Virus record (IMG/VR): IMGVR_UViG_2909282993_000005
Source: a virus
Taxonomy: Duplodnaviria > Heunggongvirae > Uroviricota > Caudoviricetes
Direction: 5' to 3' (one strand)
Length of the DNA: 27,486 nucleotides
Part shown: in pieces, positions 3,019 to 22,731 of the stretch
Position numbering within the stretch: position 1 is the first letter of the stretch
How the letters are laid out: each line of letters starts with the position of its first letter
The notes under the pieces: generated by a model
Seen by the model: the letters and a program-made list of their open reading frames with translations, nothing else
Told to the model about the DNA's origin: nothing
Database searches by the model: none
Translations under genes and position numbers: made by a program

Positions 3019-3600
3019 TTACCCTATAGGTGCTACTGGCCATTCAATATCCGGTGCAGTTGTTGTATTAACACGGTTCAGCAACACCCGATACTTCTTC
3101 CAGGCTTCCAGCAACGAGATTTCTTCCTCCGTTGCAATTTCCAGATCTGCAGCATCCTGAAGCGGCGCAATATGCTCACTGGCTACCTGCATCAGGTTGT
3201 TTTTTGTTTCTTCCGCCTCCCGGATCCGGAACAGTTTTTCTGCTTCCGTATCCTTCACCCAGGCTGTGCCGTTCCACTTCTGATATTCCCCTTCCGGCGA
3301 TAACCAGGTGACATTTTCCGGTAACGAGCCAAGTTCAGAAATAAATAACGCGTCGCCGGAAGCCACGTCATAGACGGTTTTTCCCCGATGATCTTCAACG
3401 AGATGCCACGATGCCTCATCACTGTTGAAAACAGCCACAAAGCCAGCCGGAATATCTGGCGGTGCAATATCGGTACTGTTTGCTGGCAGACCTGTATGAG
3501 GCGGAATATATGCGTCACCTTCACCAATAAATTCATTAGTTCCGGCCAGCAGATTATAAATTTTTATGGTCCGTGGTTGTTCACTCATTCTGAATGCCAT
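3019..3600 (-). CDS. Tail fiber assembly protein (Tfa family)
   Basis: 193-aa ORF starting [54 protein letters not shown] and ending [13 protein letters not shown]...IEWP, characteristic of lambdoid TfaQ/TfaR/TfaE proteins. Its start overlaps the stf stop. Confidence 0.85.
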
Positions 3601-6214: not shown

Positions 6215-6610
6215 CTAACCTCGCATGTCAAAGCCAGATTTCTGAAAATCTCTGTAGACTTCCGGATTGTTGAAGGCCGGAAATTTGGCTTTATGAGCTG
6301 CGGACTTTATCGCTTCGCAATAGGCTTTATCACCGTTACTGGTAGATATTTTTAACGCCGTGCCATCCTGAGAGAATTCCATATGCAACCTGCATTTTTT
6401 CCCTTTCCAGTTATGCGGCTCATCAAGTTTGGCATTAATTGCAGCTCTGATTCCCCGCGCTTGCGCCCCCCATTCATCCTGATCATCCCAGCGTCCTGAA
6501 CTGCAACTACCTGTAGCAGTAGTTTTGTGGCAATCTGAAGGGTGTAAAGGTGTGCATCCCGCAACAAAACCGACCCAAAAAGTCAACATAACGATTTTCT
6601 TTAATCCCAC
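6215..6610 (-). CDS. Lipoprotein with TolA domain-III-like C-terminus (moron)
   Basis: 131-aa ORF with signal peptide and lipobox (FVAGC). The C-terminus KKCRLHMEFSQDGTALKISTSNGDKAYCEAIKSAAHKAKFPAFNNPEVYRDFQ resembles the TolA C-terminal domain (GKTCTLRIKLAPDGMLLDIKPEGGDPALCQAALAAAKLAKIPKPPSQAVYEVF, from recall). Confidence 0.7.
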   Translation of the reverse strand: MGLKKIVMLTFWVGFVAGCTPLHPSDCHKTTATGSCSSGRWDDQDEWGAQARGIRAAINAKLDEPHNWKGKKCRLHMEFSQDGTALKISTSNGDKAYCEAIKSAAHKAKFPAFNNPEVYRDFQKSGFDMRG

Positions 6611-6760: not shown

Positions 6761-7189
6761 TCAGGGTTTAAAATCCAGCACCCCATTTTGAAATACTTTA
6801 TATACTTCCGGCGAAGGGGGGGCAGGTATATCAGCATTCTTTATCGCATTCATCGCTTCACGACATAAATCGAGGTCTCCACTTTCTCTTTTAACCTCCA
6901 GTAGAAGGCCATTCGGGGCCATATGCATTCTCAGTGTACACTCTTTTCCTGAATACTTACTCGCATCCCCGAACTGTTTTTCGATGGCGCTCTTGATTTG
7001 ATGGGCATACAGACGGATATTCTCACTAACATCAGAAGTACGTTCAGATGAACTCACATACTGTGTCTCTATTGCTTTATCGGAGTAATATGATGTACGG
7101 TCATGATAATTTGTCGATACAGCATCAGTGCACCCGATAATAATCCCACTAATAATCAACGTAAGAATTGATGCGCTACGAAAACCCAT
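6761..7189 (-). CDS. Lipoprotein with TolA domain-III-like C-terminus (paralog of 6215..6610)
   Basis: 142-aa ORF with lipobox (IIIGC). The C-terminus GKECTLRMHMAPNGLLLEVKRESGDLDLCREAMNAIKNADIPAPPSPEVYKVFQNGVLDFKP closely parallels the TolA C-terminal domain and the neighbouring ORF. Confidence 0.7.
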   Translation of the reverse strand: MGFRSASILTLIISGIIIGCTDAVSTNYHDRTSYYSDKAIETQYVSSSERTSDVSENIRLYAHQIKSAIEKQFGDASKYSGKECTLRMHMAPNGLLLEVKRESGDLDLCREAMNAIKNADIPAPPSPEVYKVFQNGVLDFKP

Positions 7190-7306
7190 TTTTCCTCACA
7201 TATGTCATATAGTAAAGGATTATATATACCGTTGTTTTGGACGCTCAAACAGCGAATCAGATCAAATAAAACGCACATTTGTTAACATTTACACAAAGTC
7301 TGCGTG

Positions 7307-7327
7307 GGATATTCTGAAAGAATATCC
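7307..7327. promoter_or_regulatory. 21-bp perfect palindrome ggatattc-tgaaa-gaatatcc (candidate dimeric regulator binding site)
   Basis: Read directly: 8-bp inverted arms around a 5-nt spacer, about 120 bp upstream of the lipoprotein gene start at 7189. No T-run, so not a terminator. Confidence 0.3.
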
Positions 7328-7722
7328 ATAATGTGGAGAGAATCTATTGAAGTGCATGGTGCCGGGTGCCTCCCGGTGAATTCAGTACCAGCACCTGAAT
7401 CCGCGATTATCCCATATACCTACTCGCTGATTGCCCCTCCGCACAGGGGGATTCACCATGCCAGTTTCTTTTAACAAACTCCCCGCAAACCAGAGAACAG
7501 TCAACCGCCTGAATTGTGAAGTATTTAAAAATTTCTCCCGCTAACTGATACCCGGCTAACAGTCTGGCGTTTTCTTTTTCAGCAACGGGAAAGCAACAAC
7601 CACCACACCCGCCACCAGCACACCGTCAGCCAGCACTGACATTATCCGGCTGCTGCAATGCCATTCACAAAAACAGTAAGCAATCACTTTTTACCGTAAC
7701 AGGTGATAATCCAGATATGTAT

Positions 7723-8076
7723 CTACCCCAGATGAGTAATCCGAAGTTCATCCATACCACAGGTCCTGGCTATTCTGTTGTACTCCTGAACAAGAGCAAA
7801 TAATTCTGAATTAGCAACCATGAACTCATCGCAAACCCTCTGTATAGCATCACTATTCAGAAGAATAACGTCTCTTCCCGAAAGACGATCAGGAGTACAG
7901 AACAAAACTGTCAAACGGCTGAAGGCCTTTGCTCGTGCTGCATTGACTATATCAATACGCTGCCTAAGGATGAAACACCCCGACGCCTCATCAATATTCA
8001 CTCTACCCACACCATATGAATGATAAATATTTAATGCTGAAAAAACCATTAGACCGTATAACAAACACTCAATCAA
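7723..8076 (-). CDS. Hypothetical protein (moron between phage tRNAs and lysis cassette); start codon uncertain (TTG at 8076 or internal ATG at 8049)
   Basis: 117-aa ORF with no recognisable motif. Its position matches the accessory slot used by stx in Stx phages. Confidence 0.3.
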   Translation of the reverse strand: MIECLLYGLMVFSALNIYHSYGVGRVNIDEASGCFILRQRIDIVNAARAKAFSRLTVLFCTPDRLSGRDVILLNSDAIQRVCDEFMVANSELFALVQEYNRIARTCGMDELRITHLG

Positions 8077-8186: not shown

Positions 8187-8263
8187 TGGCGCGCTGTACT
8201 GGATTCGAACCAGTAACCGATTGCTTAGAAGGCAATTGCTCTGTCCGGCTGAGCTAACAACGC
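8187..8263 (-). tRNA. tRNA-Arg (anticodon UCU)
   Basis: 77-nt cloverleaf GCGTTGTTAGCTCAGCCGGACAGAGCAATTGCCTTCTAAGCAATCGGTTACTGGTTCGAATCCAGTACAGCGCGCCA. 7-bp acceptor stem, T-loop GGTTCGAATCC, anticodon loop CTTCTAA (U33, anticodon TCT, A37), encoded CCA. Confidence 0.85.
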
Positions 8264-8367
8264 TGAATACCGATAATGGACCGCTATCGGGGACCCGCCC
8301 CCCCCCGCACCAACAACCCTGTTATCGTGTCGTCTGCTCTTCCTGATAAGCTCATGGCGGTTTGTGA

Positions 8368-8443
8368 TGGTGGCCCTTGCTGGATTTGAACCAGCGACCT
8401 GGCGATTATGAGTCGCTCGCTCTCACCACTGAGCTAAAGGGCC
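8368..8443 (-). tRNA. tRNA with CAU anticodon, most similar to tRNA-Ile2 (lysidine type, ileX/ileZ-like); elongator Met not fully excluded
   Basis: 76-nt cloverleaf GGCCCTTTAGCTCAGTGGTGAGAGCGAGCGACTCATAATCGCCAGGTCGCTGGTTCAAATCCAGCAAGGGCCACCA. Anticodon loop CTCATAA; strong resemblance to E. coli ileX from recall. Confidence 0.8.
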
Positions 8444-8481
8444 GGGAGCAGAATAATAACGGTCCGTAATTAATTCCGCAA

Positions 8482-8506
8482 TAAAAAACCCGCTCGGCGG
8501 CGGGTT
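8482..8506 (-). terminator. tR'-like intrinsic terminator between the late promoter region and the tRNA genes
   Basis: Minus-strand RNA AACCCGC-CGCCGA-GCGGGUU followed by UUUUUUAU (7-bp GC-rich stem, then U-run). Confidence 0.45.
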
Positions 8507-8553
8507 GTAGAAACTCTTCTAACGTCAGGCATAAAAAGCCCATCGTTATGATG

Positions 8554-8581
8554 AATTTACCACAGATTTCGGAAAAATCAA
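8554..8581 (-). promoter_or_regulatory. Candidate late promoter pR' (sigma70-like -35 TTGATT, 16-bp spacer, -10 TAAATT) directly downstream of the Q-like gene
   Basis: Hexamers read on the minus strand. The position (Q stop to tR' to tRNAs to lysis genes) matches lambdoid late-operon layout. Short leader of about 60 nt before the terminator. Confidence 0.3.
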
Positions 8582-8586
8582 CCTTG

Positions 8587-9408
8587 TTACCTAGTTACCT
8601 TTTTTAACTGCCGCTCAGCCCATCCTTCTTCAATATCAAACCGGGTCACCAGCGCATCATAGAATTTCTTAACTGTTTTTTCCCATGACGCGCGTGTTAT
8701 CTGGTTTGTCACCTCGCATATAGCATTAAATGCCTCCGTTGATGGTAGTCTTTCATAGCCACGACCACCACAACGCTGGCAGTCTCTGATAACAGGCATA
8801 CCACGTTTTACCGACTCTTCACGGTGAATGGCGACACCACGCCCACGGCAATCCTTACAGGCGGTGGAAACCTCACCCTTTCCGCCACACTCCGGACAGG
8901 CAACTTTTACCACCTCCCTGACTTTTTTCCATTCTTCCCAGTAAGACGGATACACACCTTTCGTACACTTTGCCCATACCGGCGGCTTACCATCCGGATA
9001 CTGGACCTTGTTTGTAAAAACTACGCTTTCAATAAATTTTTCCCCATAGCAACAAGGGCACTGCTTTTTACTCGCTGCGCTGCGGGCATAATCCTCAAAA
9101 GCGTACGAAGCCATAATGCGCATCACTACCGGTTTTATTTCTGCCGGAAGTTTTCTCAACGCCGCCACACGATCGCACCGACTGAGTGCATAATCTGCCA
9201 GTAATTCTGTTGCCCGCGCCCTGTCATTCATACTGATGCCCATTTTCCCCAGGAACGCAGAAAACCCCATCTCAGCCCGATTCTGTGTCATGCCCTGCGC
9301 GGCCATCACATCAGTGATACTCAGCGCATCTTTTGACGTTGAGGCCGATGCATCGGTCAGGCAAGGGGATTTTGGGGAGTAGTATTTCGGTAAATCTTCC
9401 AGTTTCAT
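8587..9408 (-). CDS. Late-gene antiterminator Q-like protein with Cys-rich zinc-finger region (CPCC plus three CxxCxGxG motifs)
   Basis: 273-aa ORF immediately upstream of pR'/tR' and the tRNAs and downstream of rusA, the canonical Q position. Motifs CPECGGKG, CKDCRGRG, CQRCGGRG. Family assignment is by position plus Zn-binding motifs, not verified by search. Confidence 0.55.
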   Translation of the reverse strand: MKLEDLPKYYSPKSPCLTDASASTSKDALSITDVMAAQGMTQNRAEMGFSAFLGKMGISMNDRARATELLADYALSRCDRVAALRKLPAEIKPVVMRIMASYAFEDYARSAASKKQCPCCYGEKFIESVVFTNKVQYPDGKPPVWAKCTKGVYPSYWEEWKKVREVVKVACPECGGKGEVSTACKDCRGRGVAIHREESVKRGMPVIRDCQRCGGRGYERLPSTEAFNAICEVTNQITRASWEKTVKKFYDALVTRFDIEEGWAERQLKKVTR

Positions 9409-11288: not shown

Positions 11289-11444
11289 TTACTCCTCAGG
11301 TTCGTAAACTGTGAAGACAGCGACCTCCGTCTGGCCGGTTCGGATTCGTAACTCGCAGAGGTCTTTCCTCGTTACCAGTGCCGTCACTATGACGGTTAAA
11401 CAGATGACGATCAGGGCGATTAACATCGCCTTTTGCTGCTTCAT
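11289..11444 (-). CDS. hokD: Hok/Gef-family type I toxin (HokD/RelF-like, 51 aa); in-frame upstream extension to 11501 corresponds to a Mok-like reading frame
   Basis: MKQQKAMLIALIVICLTVIVTALVTRKDLCELRIRTGQTEVAVFTVYEPEE, near-identical to HokD/RelF from recall: single TM helix plus conserved C-terminal periplasmic tail. Confidence 0.9.
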   Translation of the reverse strand: MKQQKAMLIALIVICLTVIVTALVTRKDLCELRIRTGQTEVAVFTVYEPEE

Positions 11445-12164
11445 AGCCTGCTTCTCCTTGCCTTTCGGCACGTAAGAGGCTAACCTAGATTTGCCGTTCA
11501 TAGATTGAGCCTCAGATTAATGTTAAGCGTCTTGCAGGACGCGTAATGTTAACTGGGGCTTTTCTCTATCTGCCTTTGGTGTTCATGCCTGAGGCAGATA
11601 GCCTCAAGCACCCGCAGCAATTCTACTTAACTCCCGTCACCTCGCCAATATAAAATCAATCAGAAAGGCGATCCATAAGAACAACAGCAAGACAATAAAT
11701 TGCCATTACAGCCGCAATAGCTAGCGCACATTTGAGAACCAGCACGACAACCTCCTGTATTGGACGTACACCAGTTCTGATAAATATGAGGCTGTCTCAT
11801 CATTGATTCAATATAACTATTGGGTATAGTTTCTGTGATTTTGTTCTGTAGAAATGGAACACAACAACCAGTCACCACCAGCACTTCTTTAAATACGCCA
11901 AGTCCGACGCAAGCTAACCTTCTAGTCCGCTTTGAGCGAGGAGCGGACCAAACCCGGCCAACTGACTCTTAAAGGGGCCGCAGGAATTTTTCGTCTGAAC
12001 TTTCGAAGCTCCTCTCCCTGAAGACAGAAAACTTCTGTGTGCTGTGGGAATATTGAATCTTTGCATTAGATATAAATAATTTTATCCCGCCTGAAGTTTA
12101 CATTATTTTATTTATCTGTTTTTCTAAATCAGACTGCACTCCTTACTTAAATCAGGAGCCAGTC

Positions 12165-13364
12165 ATGCCATTTGTTATTTATGTGTTTACTATCAGTGCC
12201 TTTGCGCTCGGACTCGCGGAATTTGTCCCCATTGGGCTGACAGACGTTATGGCTCAGGGGTTGTGTGTGGGTGTGGAGCAGACCGGGGCAGCGGTTACAA
12301 CCTATGCACTGGGGGCAACGTTCGCGGCACCCGTACTGTCTGCGCTGACAGCAAGCTGGAGCCGGAAAAATGTAATGCTTACAACTGCCGTTGTGTTTAC
12401 TGCCGGTAGTCTGGCGGCCGCGTTTGCAGCCACATTACCTCAGCTCCTGTTAGCGCGGTTCATTGCTGGTCTGGGACACGGCCTGTTTCTGGCTGCGGCA
12501 TCCAGTACCGCAGCTCGTCTTGCTGGACCGGGTAAAGCAGGCAGAGCGGTGGCTGTGGTATTTGGTGGCTTTACTCTGGCGATGGCAATCGGCGTACCGC
12601 TGAGTACATGGTTGGGGGGGGTGGTCTCATGGCGTCCAGTTCTCGGCGCTATTGCCGCTTTTGGCGCGTTCGGATTCCTTGGACTGTTGTTCGGTATGAA
12701 AGATCCCGTACGCAGCGTGCCCGGTGAACATAGTGACTCAGCAATGCAGAATATCGGCATGCTGTTTAACCGTAAGTTGCTGGCCGGCGCGCTGGTTACG
12801 GTGCTGGCGTATGCAGGCTCGTTTACGGCTTACACCTTTATCGCACCTATTCTGACGCAGGTGACAGGGGTTACCGGAGCAAAGGTGAGTCTGTTTATGC
12901 TGGTTTACGGTATTACAGCTGCGGTAGGTAATATTCTTGGTGGGAAACTTACCGACAGCATGGGGGTTAATCGTGCCAATATACTCATCATTAGCGGCAT
13001 TGTTGTTGTCGTGCTTGGTATGTGGCTGCTGTCATCCTCACCGGTGAGCATGGGCATTCTGGTTGCGCTGCTGGGTATGGTGACATTTGCCGCAGTGCCG
13101 GCACTGCAGGCCCGTCTGATTGGTGTCGCTGAGCAACATGCTCCTCATGCGCATGGTGTTGCTGCCGGCCTGAATATTGCGGGCTTCAACTCAGGTATAG
13201 CGCTGGGATCAGTACTGGGCAGCATTACTATAAGCCACGCCGGTATCGTGTATACCGGTATCAGCGGTGCGATTGTTTCTCTGCTCGGCCTGCTGTTGCT
13301 GCTTGCACAAATCCGTCGCAGCCACAGTCGTAAATTTCAACAGGTTAAAATCGTAGGCCAGTAA
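12165..13364 (+). CDS. MFS transporter (12-TM, DHA1-like efflux/sugar-type family); GC-rich gene
   Basis: 399-aa highly hydrophobic ORF with MFS loop motifs; AGGAG RBS. Nucleotide composition is visibly more GC-rich than the flanking phage DNA. Confidence 0.8.
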   Translation: MPFVIYVFTISAFALGLAEFVPIGLTDVMAQGLCVGVEQTGAAVTTYALGATFAAPVLSALTASWSRKNVMLTTAVVFTAGSLAAAFAATLPQLLLARFIAGLGHGLFLAAASSTAARLAGPGKAGRAVAVVFGGFTLAMAIGVPLSTWLGGVVSWRPVLGAIAAFGAFGFLGLLFGMKDPVRSVPGEHSDSAMQNIGMLFNRKLLAGALVTVLAYAGSFTAYTFIAPILTQVTGVTGAKVSLFMLVYGITAAVGNILGGKLTDSMGVNRANILIISGIVVVVLGMWLLSSSPVSMGILVALLGMVTFAAVPALQARLIGVAEQHAPHAHGVAAGLNIAGFNSGIALGSVLGSITISHAGIVYTGISGAIVSLLGLLLLLAQIRRSHSRKFQQVKIVGQ

Positions 13365-13375
13365 AGGGAGGTTAT

Positions 13376-14068
13376 ATGCTTACCCGTGAAAATATGCTTA
13401 ATGGCACATTTGTCAGGGTGCATGAAGCGCTGCTCCCGGCGAATATGCTCTGGGACGCTGAAAAAATACGCGCATCAATGAACTCTACTCTGGAGGAGCG
13501 CCCGACGGGTGCTCCTTTCTGGATATTTGCCTACGGGTCATTGATGTGGAATCCCGTGCTGGCAATTGAAGAAATGCAACGGGCCCGTCTGAAAGGATGG
13601 CAGCGCAGTTTCTGCATTCGTTTGATATCCGGACGAGCGACTCCTGATGTCCCCGGCAGGATGTTATCGCTCGACGAAGGTGGAATTACCGAAGGTATTG
13701 CGTTCAGACTGCCGGAATCGACTCTTATTAATGAGCTGGAAATTGTCTGGACGCGCGAGATGATAACCGGTCTTTACCGTCCGGTCTGGGCAGACGTTTC
13801 GCTAGGAAACGGTGAGGAAATTCAGGCGCTGGCTTTCGTATCAGACAGACTGCATCCGCATTATGAACAGGACAATCTTACAGCGACCGTAGCGTTGAGC
13901 ATCGCATCTGCCCGTGGAGACATTGGCACGAATGCAGATTATGTATGGAAACTGCAGGCCACTCTGGGTGCGTTGGGAATACGGGATGATTACGTGAGTG
14001 AACTGGCCCTTGCTCTGCATGAGGCTCCCTGTAACGATAAACTTCATCAGCGAGGCGCTTCACTATGA
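13376..14068 (+). CDS. ChaC-family gamma-glutamylcyclotransferase-like protein
   Basis: 230-aa product with FAYGSLMWNP and GRMLSLDEGG...WTREMITG motifs matching the ChaC/GGCT fold signature (YGSL catalytic region). Confidence 0.8.
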   Translation: MLTRENMLNGTFVRVHEALLPANMLWDAEKIRASMNSTLEERPTGAPFWIFAYGSLMWNPVLAIEEMQRARLKGWQRSFCIRLISGRATPDVPGRMLSLDEGGITEGIAFRLPESTLINELEIVWTREMITGLYRPVWADVSLGNGEEIQALAFVSDRLHPHYEQDNLTATVALSIASARGDIGTNADYVWKLQATLGALGIRDDYVSELALALHEAPCNDKLHQRGASL

Positions 14069-14946
14069 GCCATCTGAGCCATCTGCGAACGTTTCTTGAG
14101 GCCTATCGCTCTGGCTCCTTTTCAAAGGCGGCAGAACTACTGGGCATCACTCAGCCCGCGGCGTCACAGCATATCCAGTCTCTTGAGACTCTGGTTGGTA
14201 AGCGTCTGTTTATCAGGCAGGCCAGAGGCGTGACGGCAACCGAAGCTGCGGATGAGCTTGCCCGCTCAGTTTCACCCTTCATTGATGGTCTGGAAGAAAA
14301 GCTGTCCTCTTTCCGGTCAGGCTCTGTACACGGGGGAACAATTAATCTGGCAGGACCGCCAGATTTTATTCATTCCCGGCTTGGGACAGTAATGGCTCCA
14401 CTAATGAAGGAGGGGTATCGCCTACGCTTTCATACCGGCAATAAGCAACGTATTTATTCCCTTTTGCATGACGGGAGCGCCGATCTCGCTGTTACCGCAT
14501 CTATGCCTGATGACCGTCTGTACGGCTATGCACATCTACTGACTGAACGCATGCTCCTTGTTCATGCTCCCGCCATGTCAGAGATCATCGGATCAGAACC
14601 TGGTGCTGAAACGCTTGCCTCATTACCGCTGATTGCTTATGACGAAGAGTTGCCACTGATTAGAGCGCTCTGGGCCTCCATGTTTCAGAGAGCCCCTGAG
14701 ATGCAGGCTACATTCACCATTCCGGATTTACGTATTATCCGCGACTTGGTCTGTGACGGCCACGGGTGGACAGTGCTGCCGGATTATCACTGTGACAATG
14801 ACCTGAAAAGTGGTCGCCTGATTTCAGTGACACCTGCAGACCTCGCTCCGACTAATCATCTTTATCTGGTCTGGAACAAAAGGACGGCTAATAACAGCCG
14901 AACCGCCTATGTTCGGGATTACATTCTTAAAACGTTTCCGCGTTGA
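14065..14946 (+). CDS. LysR-family transcriptional regulator
   Basis: 293-aa product with an N-terminal wHTH typical of LysR (LRTFLEAYRSGSFSKAAELLGITQPAASQHIQSLE) and a C-terminal substrate-binding domain. 4-bp overlap with the ChaC-like gene. Confidence 0.85.
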   Translation: MSHLSHLRTFLEAYRSGSFSKAAELLGITQPAASQHIQSLETLVGKRLFIRQARGVTATEAADELARSVSPFIDGLEEKLSSFRSGSVHGGTINLAGPPDFIHSRLGTVMAPLMKEGYRLRFHTGNKQRIYSLLHDGSADLAVTASMPDDRLYGYAHLLTERMLLVHAPAMSEIIGSEPGAETLASLPLIAYDEELPLIRALWASMFQRAPEMQATFTIPDLRIIRDLVCDGHGWTVLPDYHCDNDLKSGRLISVTPADLAPTNHLYLVWNKRTANNSRTAYVRDYILKTFPR

Positions 14947-14990
14947 TGTTTGAAACGGATGATTGGCGATGTGTATCATAAGTTACGTAT

Positions 14991-15020
14991 GTCCGCTTCT
15001 GGCACAAAGCAGACGCCCAC
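14991..15020. repeat. 30-bp imperfect direct repeat, copy A (gtccgcttctggcacaaagcagacgcccac)
   Basis: Matches copy B at 18664..18693 in 24/30 positions, with a 14-bp core GGCACAAAGCrGAC. Lies between the LysR stop and the convergent membrane-protein gene. Confidence 0.5.
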
Positions 15021-15076
15021 TCTCACGCGAATGCTTTGCCCTTGACTTGCCAACAACCGTATCGCTTGCTCCGCAA

Positions 15077-16369
15077 CTATGGTTTTTTATTAGAACCTTC
15101 GCCACTAAATAAATTATAATAAATTGATTTTATTAGATATCTGTCAGAATCTATATGGTCAGCACGAGTAGCATGCTCTAATGTTTCAAATGCTAGGGTT
15201 TGTGCGGCTTCAGCAAAAATTCCAGGCCAACCCTTACTCAGCATCGACAGTCCTTTAAGTACCCTTATCTGAATTTCCCTCATACTGGCACCATCGCGCG
15301 CAACAGGTGAGAAAAAGTCTTCAAGTAGATCGTTATTCTGAAGTGGTGCAACATGTACAGAAGGATATTTCACTTCTATTTCATCAGATTTATTCTGCGC
15401 GTAAGCGGAAAGTATACGTACACCTCTGCCAATGACATCAATGGCGGTTCCAGGATCGTTCACTGCGGGGGAAAGGGCTCGGCAGGCTATTTCGGCCATG
15501 ACGCTAAGACAAAATCGGGGGTCCTGAGCAAATGAACGTACATCCGAGACAATAATCGTCTCAAGTAAATCGGTGCTGATTGATGACTCCTGGCCCTGAC
15601 TCAGGTACAAAACTGGCGTGGACGGATGTATGAAACTGCCCGGCTGCGCCACGAGGTATACATGACGGGGATCATTGGTCAGCAGCTTGCTGAGTTTCAC
15701 CATATCAACATATTCAACATAGCCAATCTTTTTCGGATAAACTGCAACCGTTCCTTTCGGCTGTTCATTGTTCTCAAGCCATGGATATCCGCCGAGACAG
15801 GGATTTCTTGCTCTCGCAATAAATGTTTCGATGGCCGCCTGTTCTACTTTTGCCGTTGTCTCACCAACCCTCCCCAGAGAGGTCAAATGCTGTATCCAGC
15901 GAAGCAATGTGATGAGGATTAAGGCAATGACAACCAGTGTTACAATGAATAAAATGACTCTCCCCCTTTCTCCATAAGCTCCCATATTGAGGGCAATAAT
16001 CCCTACCAGACTGAAGAGAAAAGAACCGATGAAGGTGGCCAGTACATTTTGTGTGGTGACGTCTTCAACAACTAAACGAGTAGCTCTGGGAGTCACATTA
16101 GTAGTGGCTGAACCGTAGGCTGTGACCATGATGCTCAGCGAAAATGTGGTCACTGCCAGCATACTCGATGCCAGTATGTTCAGAATGTTATCGACTGCTT
16201 CCGCACCAACCTTCACGGAAACCGACTCAGGTATCATTGATTTAAAAAGAATTGATAAAAGGGCCGTTATTATTGCGACAATTGCGAATAACGTTGCCCT
16301 GAACCATAGTTTTTTAAATGTCTGCTTCAGCATCCATTTCCAGCGTGAAATCATTCTGCATTCCCTCAT
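15077..16369 (-). CDS. Membrane protein with N-terminal multi-TM region and C-terminal soluble domain (tentatively DUF2254-like); exact start uncertain (alternative Met codons at residues 6 and 13)
   Basis: 430-aa ORF with four predicted hydrophobic helices in the first ~160 residues and a long hydrophilic C-terminus. Family name is tentative recall. Confidence 0.55.
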   Translation of the reverse strand: MRECRMISRWKWMLKQTFKKLWFRATLFAIVAIITALLSILFKSMIPESVSVKVGAEAVDNILNILASSMLAVTTFSLSIMVTAYGSATTNVTPRATRLVVEDVTTQNVLATFIGSFLFSLVGIIALNMGAYGERGRVILFIVTLVVIALILITLLRWIQHLTSLGRVGETTAKVEQAAIETFIARARNPCLGGYPWLENNEQPKGTVAVYPKKIGYVEYVDMVKLSKLLTNDPRHVYLVAQPGSFIHPSTPVLYLSQGQESSISTDLLETIIVSDVRSFAQDPRFCLSVMAEIACRALSPAVNDPGTAIDVIGRGVRILSAYAQNKSDEIEVKYPSVHVAPLQNNDLLEDFFSPVARDGASMREIQIRVLKGLSMLSKGWPGIFAEAAQTLAFETLEHATRADHIDSDRYLIKSIYYNLFSGEGSNKKP

Positions 16370-16417
16370 ATTGCAGCCGGGATAAATAAATGCCGCCTCT
16401 GTGGCGGCATGTTGCTG

Positions 16418-18421
16418 TTAACGAACCAGATGCAGGAAGTGCAGGTGTTTTTCGTACTGGTCCAGTATGTCATTAATCAGCTGTTCCTGATTCCAGCCCA
16501 TTACATCATAATTTTGGCCGCCCTCTTTGAGATAGACTTCAGCGCGATAATATCGATGTTGTTCACTCTGCTGCTCATCATTATCCAGCGCAGCGAGCGC
16601 GAAGGTCGGTGAGTTATACCCGCGAAGCCTCACTTCATATATATAATTCAGCTCGTTGCCCAAATCGACTTCAAGGCGAATACGATCCTCGGCGGCGTCA
16701 CTGATGTGGCTTATCGTTCCCTGCTTGTTAAGTTCCTCCTGAACCAGCGTCATGGCGGGTTGGATAATGTCGTCCATAAAACGTTTCACAAGAGAGCGCT
16801 TCGGCAAATACGCGATATTGCGTAACCTTCTCTGCCAGGGAATTGGGTTACGTGCAGCCGTAGGAGCAATAGTCGCCATGCTAAGGCTTTCACGCTTGGT
16901 CAAATCCCGACGCAGGGCTTTTAACAGTCCGTATATGGATATTAATAAGATAACTGAGAAGGGCAATGCACTCGCTATCGTTACGGTTTGCAACGCACTC
17001 AGCCCCCCTGCGATCAGCAGGGCAATAGCAACAACGCCCATGAGCGATGCCCAGAAAATTCGCTGCCAGACGGGCGTGTTTGCCACCCCACCTGATGCCA
17101 GAGTATCCACAACCATTGCCCCCGAATCAGCAGACGTTACAAAGAAGACGATGACCATCGCCATTGCAATGAATGACAGCACGGAAGAGAACGGGAAATG
17201 CTCCAGGAAATTAAACAGGGCAAGCGCAACATCCTGCTGAACGGTATTGGCGAGGTCAGTGGCGCCCTGGTTCATGATGAGATAGATGGCGCTGTTTCCA
17301 AACACCGTCATCCACATGAGCGTAAAGCCGGCGGGAACAAACAACACGCCAGTCACGAACTCACGAATTGTCCTGCCGCGGGAAACGCGTGCAATGAACA
17401 TACCTACAAACGGCGACCATGAAAGCCACCATCCCCAGTATAATAATGTCCAGCCCCCCAGCCAGTTGCTCGACTTGGGTTCATACGCGTAAAGGTTGAA
17501 CGTTTTACTCACCAGTTCCGACAGATAACCACCCGTATTTTCCACAAATGACTTCAGCAGAAGCACAGTGGGACCCAGGCACAAGACCAGCGCCAGGAGC
17601 AACACCGCCAGGCCCAGATTAAGCTCAGACAGGATGCGTATTCCCTTGTCCAGGCCGGACACCACCGAAATCGTCGCTAACCCCGTGATGACCACGATCA
17701 AAATGACCTGTACCGTTTCATTGATGGGCACGCCGAAAAGATGGTTCAAACCGGCATTCACCTGCAATACACCGTAACCCAGTGATGTTGCAACGCCAAA
17801 GACAGTGCCTATCACGGCGAAGATATCAACCGCGTGGCCTATAGGCCCGTAAATGCGATCGCCGATAATGGGATAGAGCGCAGAACGCAGCGTTAAAGGC
17901 AGACCGTGACGGTAACTGAAAAAGGCCAGAATCAGCGCCACGATGGCATAAATTGCCCATGCGTGCAGACCCCAGTGGAAGAACGTCAGGCGCATGGCTT
18001 CCTTCGCTGCCGCAACGGTCTCTGGAGTGCCGACAGGTGGCGAAAGATAATGCATCACAGGTTCGGCAACGCCAAAGAACATCAGGCCGATCCCCATCCC
18101 TGCCGAAAAAAGCATCGCGAACCAGGAGTGGTAGCTGAAATCAGGCTGCGCATGGTCTGGGCCCAGCTTTATATCACCGTAACGTGAGAGTCCAAGGAAC
18201 GTGACGCTCAGTAAAATCAGGGCCACAGCAAGTATGTAGAACCAGCTGGCATTCGTGAAGATTTGTTGCTGAAGTAGTTTAAAATTTTTGTCGGCGACAT
18301 CCGGGAATACGGCGGCAAAGGCGACAAGAAGGAAAATTAGCAAAGCAGATGTAAAGAATACCGCTTTGTTAATCTGGCTTGTAGACTTCTTTGGGGTTGT
18401 ATCATTTTCACTCATAATCAT
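16418..18421 (-). CDS. BCCT-family transporter (BetT-like choline/betaine/carnitine transporter)
   Basis: 667-aa product with BCCT signature regions (WTLLYWGWWLSWSPFVGMFIARVSRGRTIREF) and the C-terminal DILDQYEKHLHFLHL tail typical of BetT. Confidence 0.85.
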   Translation of the reverse strand: MIMSENDTTPKKSTSQINKAVFFTSALLIFLLVAFAAVFPDVADKNFKLLQQQIFTNASWFYILAVALILLSVTFLGLSRYGDIKLGPDHAQPDFSYHSWFAMLFSAGMGIGLMFFGVAEPVMHYLSPPVGTPETVAAAKEAMRLTFFHWGLHAWAIYAIVALILAFFSYRHGLPLTLRSALYPIIGDRIYGPIGHAVDIFAVIGTVFGVATSLGYGVLQVNAGLNHLFGVPINETVQVILIVVITGLATISVVSGLDKGIRILSELNLGLAVLLLALVLCLGPTVLLLKSFVENTGGYLSELVSKTFNLYAYEPKSSNWLGGWTLLYWGWWLSWSPFVGMFIARVSRGRTIREFVTGVLFVPAGFTLMWMTVFGNSAIYLIMNQGATDLANTVQQDVALALFNFLEHFPFSSVLSFIAMAMVIVFFVTSADSGAMVVDTLASGGVANTPVWQRIFWASLMGVVAIALLIAGGLSALQTVTIASALPFSVILLISIYGLLKALRRDLTKRESLSMATIAPTAARNPIPWQRRLRNIAYLPKRSLVKRFMDDIIQPAMTLVQEELNKQGTISHISDAAEDRIRLEVDLGNELNYIYEVRLRGYNSPTFALAALDNDEQQSEQHRYYRAEVYLKEGGQNYDVMGWNQEQLINDILDQYEKHLHFLHLVR

Positions 18422-22678: not shown

Positions 22679-22731
22679 TTTCTGGTGACGTTTGGCGGTA
22701 TCAGTTTTACTCCGTGACTGCTCTGCCGCCC
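22679..22731 (+). ncRNA. dicF: DicF small RNA (cell-division inhibitor sRNA targeting ftsZ mRNA)
   Basis: 53-nt sequence TTTCTGGTGACGTTTGGCGGTATCAGTTTTACTCCGTGACTGCTCTGCCGCCC matches DicF from recall, followed by a T-run (22732-22736) and preceded by a structured ~300-nt leader. Confidence 0.8.

Follow-up and report, generated by a model that had tools for sequence, protein, structure and literature searches.

The locus examined here raises the question of what kind of protein is encoded where a lambdoid prophage would be expected to carry its late-gene antiterminator, if that protein bears cysteine repeats of the type found in the chaperone DnaJ. The DNA analyzed, referred to below as the window, is a stretch of 27,486 nucleotides from a tailed-phage record (IMG/VR IMGVR_UViG_2909282993_000005). 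The original prediction had placed the open reading frame at the Q position, and the gene order bore this out: a DUF968 protein gene, the RusA gene, the open reading frame, a promoter and terminator, two tRNA genes, and then lysis and packaging genes. Such surroundings are expected where, in a lambdoid prophage, the nin region ends and the late operon begins. The DUF968 and RusA genes lie upstream on the same strand, and the open reading frame begins with an ATG that overlaps the rusA stop codon as ATGA. Downstream, the two tRNA genes are followed by genes for proteins with a TolA C-terminal domain and then by lysis, packaging and head genes; these last are annotated in the E. coli genome that matches a 1.1-kb query from this locus at 100% identity. 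The gene in question was assigned as follows.

8587-9408, minus strand: gene assigned as the Q antiterminator, Q-lambda family, phi80-like long form; 273 amino acids plus stop

Profile searches assigned the product to the Q-lambda family. In a Pfam scan at E ≤ 0.1, the protein matched PF03589 ("Antitermination protein Q") with 181.6 bits against a cutoff (gathering score) of 26.7 (E = 2.9e-54), and the only other match was a subthreshold one to PF00684, the DnaJ cysteine-rich domain; no match to Q21 (PF06530) or Q82 (PF06323) was found in that scan. A full-length match was obtained to PHROG 127, "anti-termination protein Q-like" (E = 2.3e-110). When the protein was compared with PDB sequences by phmmer, it matched lambda Q (7ubm_Q; E = 1.8e-40) in two aligned blocks, with query residues 1-113 corresponding to lambda Q residues 1-113 and query residues 182-273 corresponding to lambda Q residues 116-207. 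The predicted fold had the four-helix body with a helix-turn-helix of Q-lambda, and the gene was located as a Q-lambda gene is, closing the nin region directly before a late promoter, a candidate Q site, a pause element and a terminator. The DNA of the gene was 100% identical to a stretch of an E. coli genome annotated as "antitermination protein" (WP_000762868.1). Compared with the copy in E. albertii, the whole gene gave a dN/dS of 0.15, which indicated purifying selection; in comparisons with more distant relatives, the synonymous sites were saturated. Together, these results make it very probable that the window gene encodes Q, the late-gene antiterminator, in a lambdoid E. coli prophage, belonging to the Q-lambda family (PF03589) and, within it, to the phi80-type long subtype. 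Members of that subtype have an insertion of about 43 to 70 residues with an invariant pair of motifs, CxxC and CxxCxG, and the window protein has both. The gene is an ordinary, previously annotated antiterminator and not the founder of a new family; its antitermination activity, DNA binding and zinc content are inferred by analogy with lambda Q.

Alignment with lambda Q divided the protein into five segments.

9277-9408, minus strand: N-terminal segment, residues 1-44; residue-for-residue alignment with lambda Q 1-44
9070-9276, minus strand: N-terminal half of the helical Q body, residues 45-113; aligned with lambda Q 45-113, predicted helices with pLDDT of 86 to 95
8866-9069, minus strand: insertion relative to lambda Q, residues 114-181, a predicted second zinc ribbon; a gap in the alignment with lambda Q, present in phi80 Q
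8749-8865, minus strand: canonical Q-lambda arm (zinc ribbon), residues 182-220; aligned with the lambda Q arm
8590-8748, minus strand: C-terminal half of the Q body, residues 221-273, with the helix-turn-helix region and C-terminal helix

Residues 1-44 were highly conserved, with G39 kept and lambda V6 replaced by L6. In lambda Q, the N-terminal segment is intrinsically disordered in the free protein and refolds into a torus, or nozzle, in the RNA-exit channel of RNA polymerase (PMC9388147). The AlphaFold model of the window protein gave a pLDDT below 50 for residues 1-27, which fits the disorder reported for free lambda Q.

The cysteine motifs noted in the original prediction were all found, with CPCC at C117-P-C119-C120, CPECGGKG at C171, CKDCRGRG at C184 and CQRCGGRG at C210. 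The protein thus has three perfect CxxCxGxG repeats, preceded by a degenerate first one (CPCCYGEK), and in 200,000 shuffles of its sequence even two or more such repeats were never reached. In a set of 57 long-form relatives (250 to 277 amino acids; 36 to 98% identity), cysteines 117, 120, 171, 174, 184, 187, 210 and 213 were invariant. The last four of these aligned with C118, C121, C144 and C147 of lambda Q and were invariant in 109 of 109 homologues. In lambda Q, residues 114-152 form the "Q-lambda arm," a zinc ribbon (PMC9388147), and the only cysteines among those residues are the four contributed by two CxxCxGxG motifs, CRDCHGTG and CGRCKGVG. Because of this alignment and of the invariance of the cysteines, two of the three perfect motifs that had been noted represent the normal zinc ligands of the family. 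Four perfect CxxCxGxG motifs were present in 41 of 120 homologues. The CxxCxGxG motifs of the window protein are best read as zinc ligands and not as a chaperone domain, and this correction is the main import of the annotation: what looked unusual at the Q position is what lambda Q itself uses to hold zinc.

The DNA that follows the Q gene was also of the kind that a Q-lambda protein would act on. The following features, all on the same strand as Q, were identified.

8554-8581, minus strand: PR'-like late promoter directly after the Q stop codon; -35 TTGATT at 8581-8576 and -10 TAAATT at 8559-8554
8539-8547, minus strand: AACGATGGG, a -10-like sigma-dependent pause element 6 nt past the -10 hexamer, at or near the transcription start
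8481-8506, minus strand: intrinsic terminator (tR'-like) found by terminator scan; G+C-rich stem at 8506-8487, then a T run
8368-8443, minus strand: tRNA with a CAT anticodon, the first gene past the terminator; called Met by ARAGORN and Ile by RefSeq
8187-8263, minus strand: tRNA-Arg (TCT), the second gene past the terminator

A promoter-terminator cassette had been proposed at 8482-8581, and its -35 and -10 elements and its terminator stem with T run were all recovered. The spacer of the promoter is 16 nt long (TTTCCGAAATCTGTGG, 8575-8560); it contains a candidate Q-binding element and includes the TG of an extended -10. Only 8 of 12 positions match the sigma70 consensus, so that a generic promoter scan missed PR'; it was accepted as a promoter because of its conservation and its identity with the layout in lambda and phi80. 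In 25 distinct related loci with the same promoter class, the spacer motif TTTTCCnGAAnCTGTG was invariant while its flanks varied, and the -10 hexamer and pause element were invariant or nearly so while the bases between them varied. Across 55 related loci from other Enterobacterales, the pause-element pattern AA[CT]G[AC]TGG occurred within 200 nt after the Q stop codon in 40, compared with 1 of 55 upstream controls. Terminators were found at the matching position in related loci. In the window, the leader RNA folded with -20.6 kcal/mol (z = -2.1) and a hairpin at leader positions 42 to 61, and the terminated leader RNA from PR' would be about 65 nt long. In lambda the leader, known as 6S RNA, has about 194 nt. 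The -10 hexamer of lambda PR' is likewise TAAATT, and the same pause element, AACGATGGG, follows it at the same spacing. Short terminated PR' RNAs have been reported for phi80, 21, 82 and P22 (PMC7547250).

The arrangement downstream of phi80 Q matched that of the window: a pR' is annotated there, its spacer contains a Q site, and a pause element (AACGCTGGG) is followed by a terminator that lies about 50 to 80 nt downstream. The spacer itself, as the candidate Q-binding sequence, differed, being TCGCGGAAAAA in phi80 and TTTCCGAAATC in the window, which implies a different DNA specificity. A second promoter class among the related loci, in which the spacer carries GTGGCGGAA as in phi80, accompanied more divergent Q proteins; two spacer classes with diverged Q proteins are what different Q-site specificities would produce. 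In many relatives (L005-L034), the -35 element of PR' is bordered by an inverted repeat, ATAGCTCAC ... GTGAGCTAT, about 10 to 45 nt upstream. The window lacks this repeat, and there the Q stop codon immediately adjoins the promoter.

From homology to lambda Q and from the conserved cis elements, a mechanism can be proposed for the window protein. RNA polymerase would start at the PR'-like promoter just past the Q stop codon and would pause early, when sigma70 re-binds the -10-like AACGAT element. Without Q, polymerase would stop at the terminator about 65 nt downstream. Q would bind the DNA site between the -35 and -10 elements through the helix-turn-helix of its body and its zinc-ribbon arm, and on the sigma-paused polymerase it would touch both sigma region 4 and the zinc-binding domain of beta'. 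Next, aided by NusA, it would thread its N-terminal 44 residues into the RNA-exit channel as a nozzle, and the modified polymerase would pass the terminator into the two tRNA genes and the lysis, packaging and head genes. Site binding, the contacts with sigma region 4 and beta', the N-terminal nozzle with NusA, and terminator read-through have all been described for lambda Q (PMC9388147).

We considered the possibility that the cysteine repeats might instead mark a DnaJ-like zinc-finger chaperone or a thiol-redox protein. The three perfect and one degenerate CxxCxGxG repeats speak for such a protein, as do matches to DnaJ models: PF00684 gave 28.4 bits, TIGR02349 (DnaJ) gave E = 1.1e-5 over 56 residues (163-218), and a profile of the two-ribbon fragment matched DNAJA3 (E = 0.0018) and the E. 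coli DnaJ structure 1exk (E = 0.033). In addition, a long-form Q homologue from Serratia quinivorans (P0032) carries the name "chaperone protein DnaJ" in its source record, probably a misannotation derived from the CxxCxGxG motifs. The scores, however, lay below the cutoffs, since PF00684 requires 32.7 bits and TIGR02349, which gave 25 bits, requires 377, and the same two-ribbon profile matched lambda Q with E = 1e-9. No J domain, G/F region or C-terminal client-binding domain was found in the window protein in the Pfam scan (E ≤ 0.1), and the remainder of the protein is the Q-lambda body. The repeats of DnaJ pair in a nested fashion (1 with 4 and 2 with 3) to form two zinc centers, whereas those of the window protein probably pair in tandem (1 with 2 and 3 with 4), and the spacing of its repeats, 54, 13 and 26 residues, also differs from that of DnaJ. 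The DnaJ cysteine-rich domain (PF00684; PDB 1EXK) and anti-TRAP (PDB 2BX9) share with the window protein the same CxxCxGxG zinc-binding turn, but their similarity to it in sequence and fold is weak, and in the window protein the motifs are embedded in a predicted DNA- and RNA-polymerase-binding antiterminator that has none of the other parts of DnaJ. The likeness to DnaJ is genuine but, on sequence comparison, confined to the zinc-binding turns, and a chaperone or redox protein is an exceedingly improbable reading of this gene.

The original prediction had also suggested a distinct antiterminator family, which would be a fourth family of late antiterminators, or another late regulator that merely occupies the Q position. 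In favor of this, the window protein exceeds lambda Q by 66 residues and by two cysteine motifs, and it matches DnaJ-type models weakly. Yet its homology to lambda Q runs from end to end, both in sequence and in predicted fold; what it has in addition is one insertion in the Q-lambda scaffold, which is shared with phi80 Q; and the lambda-type pause element and promoter geometry are conserved downstream. Q21 and Q82, which occupy the same genomic position and have the same regulatory role, belong to families unrelated to Q-lambda (PMC9388147), and neither matched the window protein at E ≤ 0.1. At the level of family membership this suggestion is already refuted, and we regard it as very improbable overall. 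The assignment to Q-lambda could also be right for a gene that looks intact and is functionally idle in a cryptic prophage undergoing decay. Names such as hokD/sok, DicF and essD/rrrD/rzpD show this prophage to be of the Qin/DLP12 kind, and it contains a five-gene block of non-phage cargo. A prophage with such a block might be defective, with Q intact and rarely used. Against an idle gene, Q is full length and under the purifying selection described above, the PR' cassette is intact and conserved, and a related genome has lysis, terminase, portal, protease and capsid genes downstream; this alternative, too, appears improbable.

For the Q-lambda antiterminator favored here, the main departure from lambda Q lies in the insertion. 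It comprises 66 to 68 residues (about 114-181), falls exactly at the junction of the lambda Q body and arm, entering between lambda residues 113/114 and 115/116, and holds the CPCC and CPECGGKG motifs. The AlphaFold model showed a short strand, a turn with C117xxC120, a long beta-hairpin (residues 125-136 and 159-170) and a turn with C171xxC174xGxG, at moderate confidence (pLDDT of 66 to 83 in the full model and a mean of 61 for the fragment alone). The length and sequence of the hairpin tip vary. Among the 57 long forms, C119 also varies, unlike C117, C120, C171 and C174. Most likely, C117/C120 and C171/C174 are ligands of a second zinc, which would clamp the extra beta-hairpin at its base. 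The tandem pairing would follow by elimination, because motifs 3 and 4 pair in lambda Q and leave motifs 1 and 2 to each other. From the sequence, we infer that the window Q has two zinc ribbons in tandem where lambda Q, which has no 66-residue insertion, has one. Compared with the E. albertii copy, the insertion had a dN/dS of 0.16, again indicating purifying selection; over longer distances, it evolves faster than the rest of the protein.

When the insertion alone (residues 112-183) was searched against 1.84 billion representative proteins, 17 matches were obtained, and none outside the Q family was seen. Those of full-length size matched at the same position as in the window Q, and the others were short fragments. 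From these matches, no donor domain outside the Q family was found. To see whether the insertion arose by internal duplication of the arm, residues 114-181 were compared with residues 182-222 by BLASTP; the match, driven by the CxxCGGxG motif, gave E = 0.001 as a single comparison over 29 residues and was too weak to argue for a duplication.

The place at which the insertion enters suggests a possible role. Lambda Q in its loading complex touches the beta' zinc-binding domain through residues 110-112, 117 and 122-126 and the major groove of the DNA through residues close to the zinc (PMC9388147). Given its position between lambda residues 113/114 and 115/116, a second ribbon should project from this contact region. 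Since the lambda residues that flank the insertion point make such contacts, our best guess, and a plausible one by analogy, is that the extra ribbon provides a further contact, made either to DNA or to the zinc-binding domain of beta'; an insertion whose base is conserved and whose tip varies fits either kind of contact. A more general proposal is tentative and in our judgment somewhat unlikely. It holds that long (phi80-type) Q proteins, which make up about half of the family in phage records, carry a structurally uncharacterized second ribbon that, with the canonical arm, would form a tandem two-zinc module of four DnaJ-type CxxCxGxG turns, and that the conserved base and fast-evolving tip of this ribbon would make a contact absent from lambda Q, either with DNA that adjoins the Q-binding element or with RNA polymerase in the vicinity of the beta' zinc-binding domain. 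If the extra contact is real, the loading complex of a phi80-type Q would differ from the solved lambda one. With an extra predicted ribbon in about half of lambda-family Q proteins, its role in loading is one that the solved lambda Q complexes do not cover. No description of a second ribbon was found in the literature searched, which left out Guo and Roberts 2004 (phi80 Q) and Vorobiev et al. 2014 (lambda Q structure).

The gene and its long architecture of the phi80 type are already known, and both are common. Of 5426 complete E. coli genomes, 2476 contained at least 80% of a 1101-nt query (Q plus flanks), and the best matches were 100% identical. A tblastn search of phage records matched 249 of them; when 40 rows were drawn at even intervals from the ranked list, about half were long (741 to 819 nt matched) and about half were of lambda length (621 nt). 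Long-form Q genes in phage records include those of phi80, ES18, mEp460 and Stx2c-converting phages. The Q of Escherichia phage mEp460_ev081 (LR597641), annotated as "Phage antitermination protein Q," is 98.5% identical over 273 residues, with essentially no difference, and represents a phage-borne copy of the same gene. The Q of phi80 (the gene 17 product in JX871397) has 269 amino acids, is 41% identical and contains the insertion with CDCCDGGG and CKPCNGKG; gene 17 is annotated as [quoted passage not shown] The two proteins are alike in length class, arm, N terminus and C-terminal ...KVTR, and they differ in motif 3, which is of the CxC type in phi80 (CRCHGKG) and CxxC in the window. PMC9388147 cites a 2004 study of the DNA-binding regions of phi80 Q. 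Lambda Q (207 amino acids; PDB 4MO1 and 7UBJ-7UBN) shares the homologous torus segment, four-helix body and arm and falls in the same Pfam family. A further precomputed Pfam assignment, PF27659, was attached to most of the listed homologues of the window Q, and one homologue of 337 amino acids (P0001) is a Q with a partial internal duplication.

Several further observations were made in the surrounding DNA. The RefSeq call of Ile for the tRNA with the CAT anticodon would mean a tRNA of the lysidine-modified type. A G run (GGGGGGGGGCGGG on the minus strand) lies at about 8296-8308, between the two tRNA genes. Stx phages have a similar tRNA pair downstream of Q. Just past the tRNAs, a 117-amino-acid open reading frame (7723-8076, minus strand) matched PHROG 2873, a family of unknown function (E = 6e-70), and had no match in the Pfam scan. 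About 1.1 kb downstream of Q, at 7300-7490 on the minus strand, an STnc100 sRNA was found (Rfam RF02076; 114 bits); a 2026 preprint has tied STnc100/PasD sRNAs to neighborhoods with a PF03589 Q gene.

Elsewhere in the window, the region from 12165 to 18421 contains five non-phage genes inside the prophage, between the replication/DUF977 genes and hokD. According to the matching RefSeq annotation, this block encodes an MFS transporter, a gamma-glutamylcyclotransferase, a LysR regulator, a DUF2254 protein and a BCCT transporter. An Rfam scan detected the sok antitoxin RNA beside hokD (11439-11613, minus strand), DicF RNA (22680-22731, plus strand) and IS009 RNA (3059-3257, minus strand), and from these three RNAs the element can be recognized as a Qin/DLP12-like prophage. 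Two open reading frames on the minus strand (6761-7189 and 6215-6610) that carry a TolA C-terminal domain separate the tRNAs from the lysis genes in the late operon; both are annotated as TolA-like, and the first matched PF06519 with E = 3.6e-23. Phage-borne TolA fragments of this kind could affect the entry of colicins or filamentous phages.
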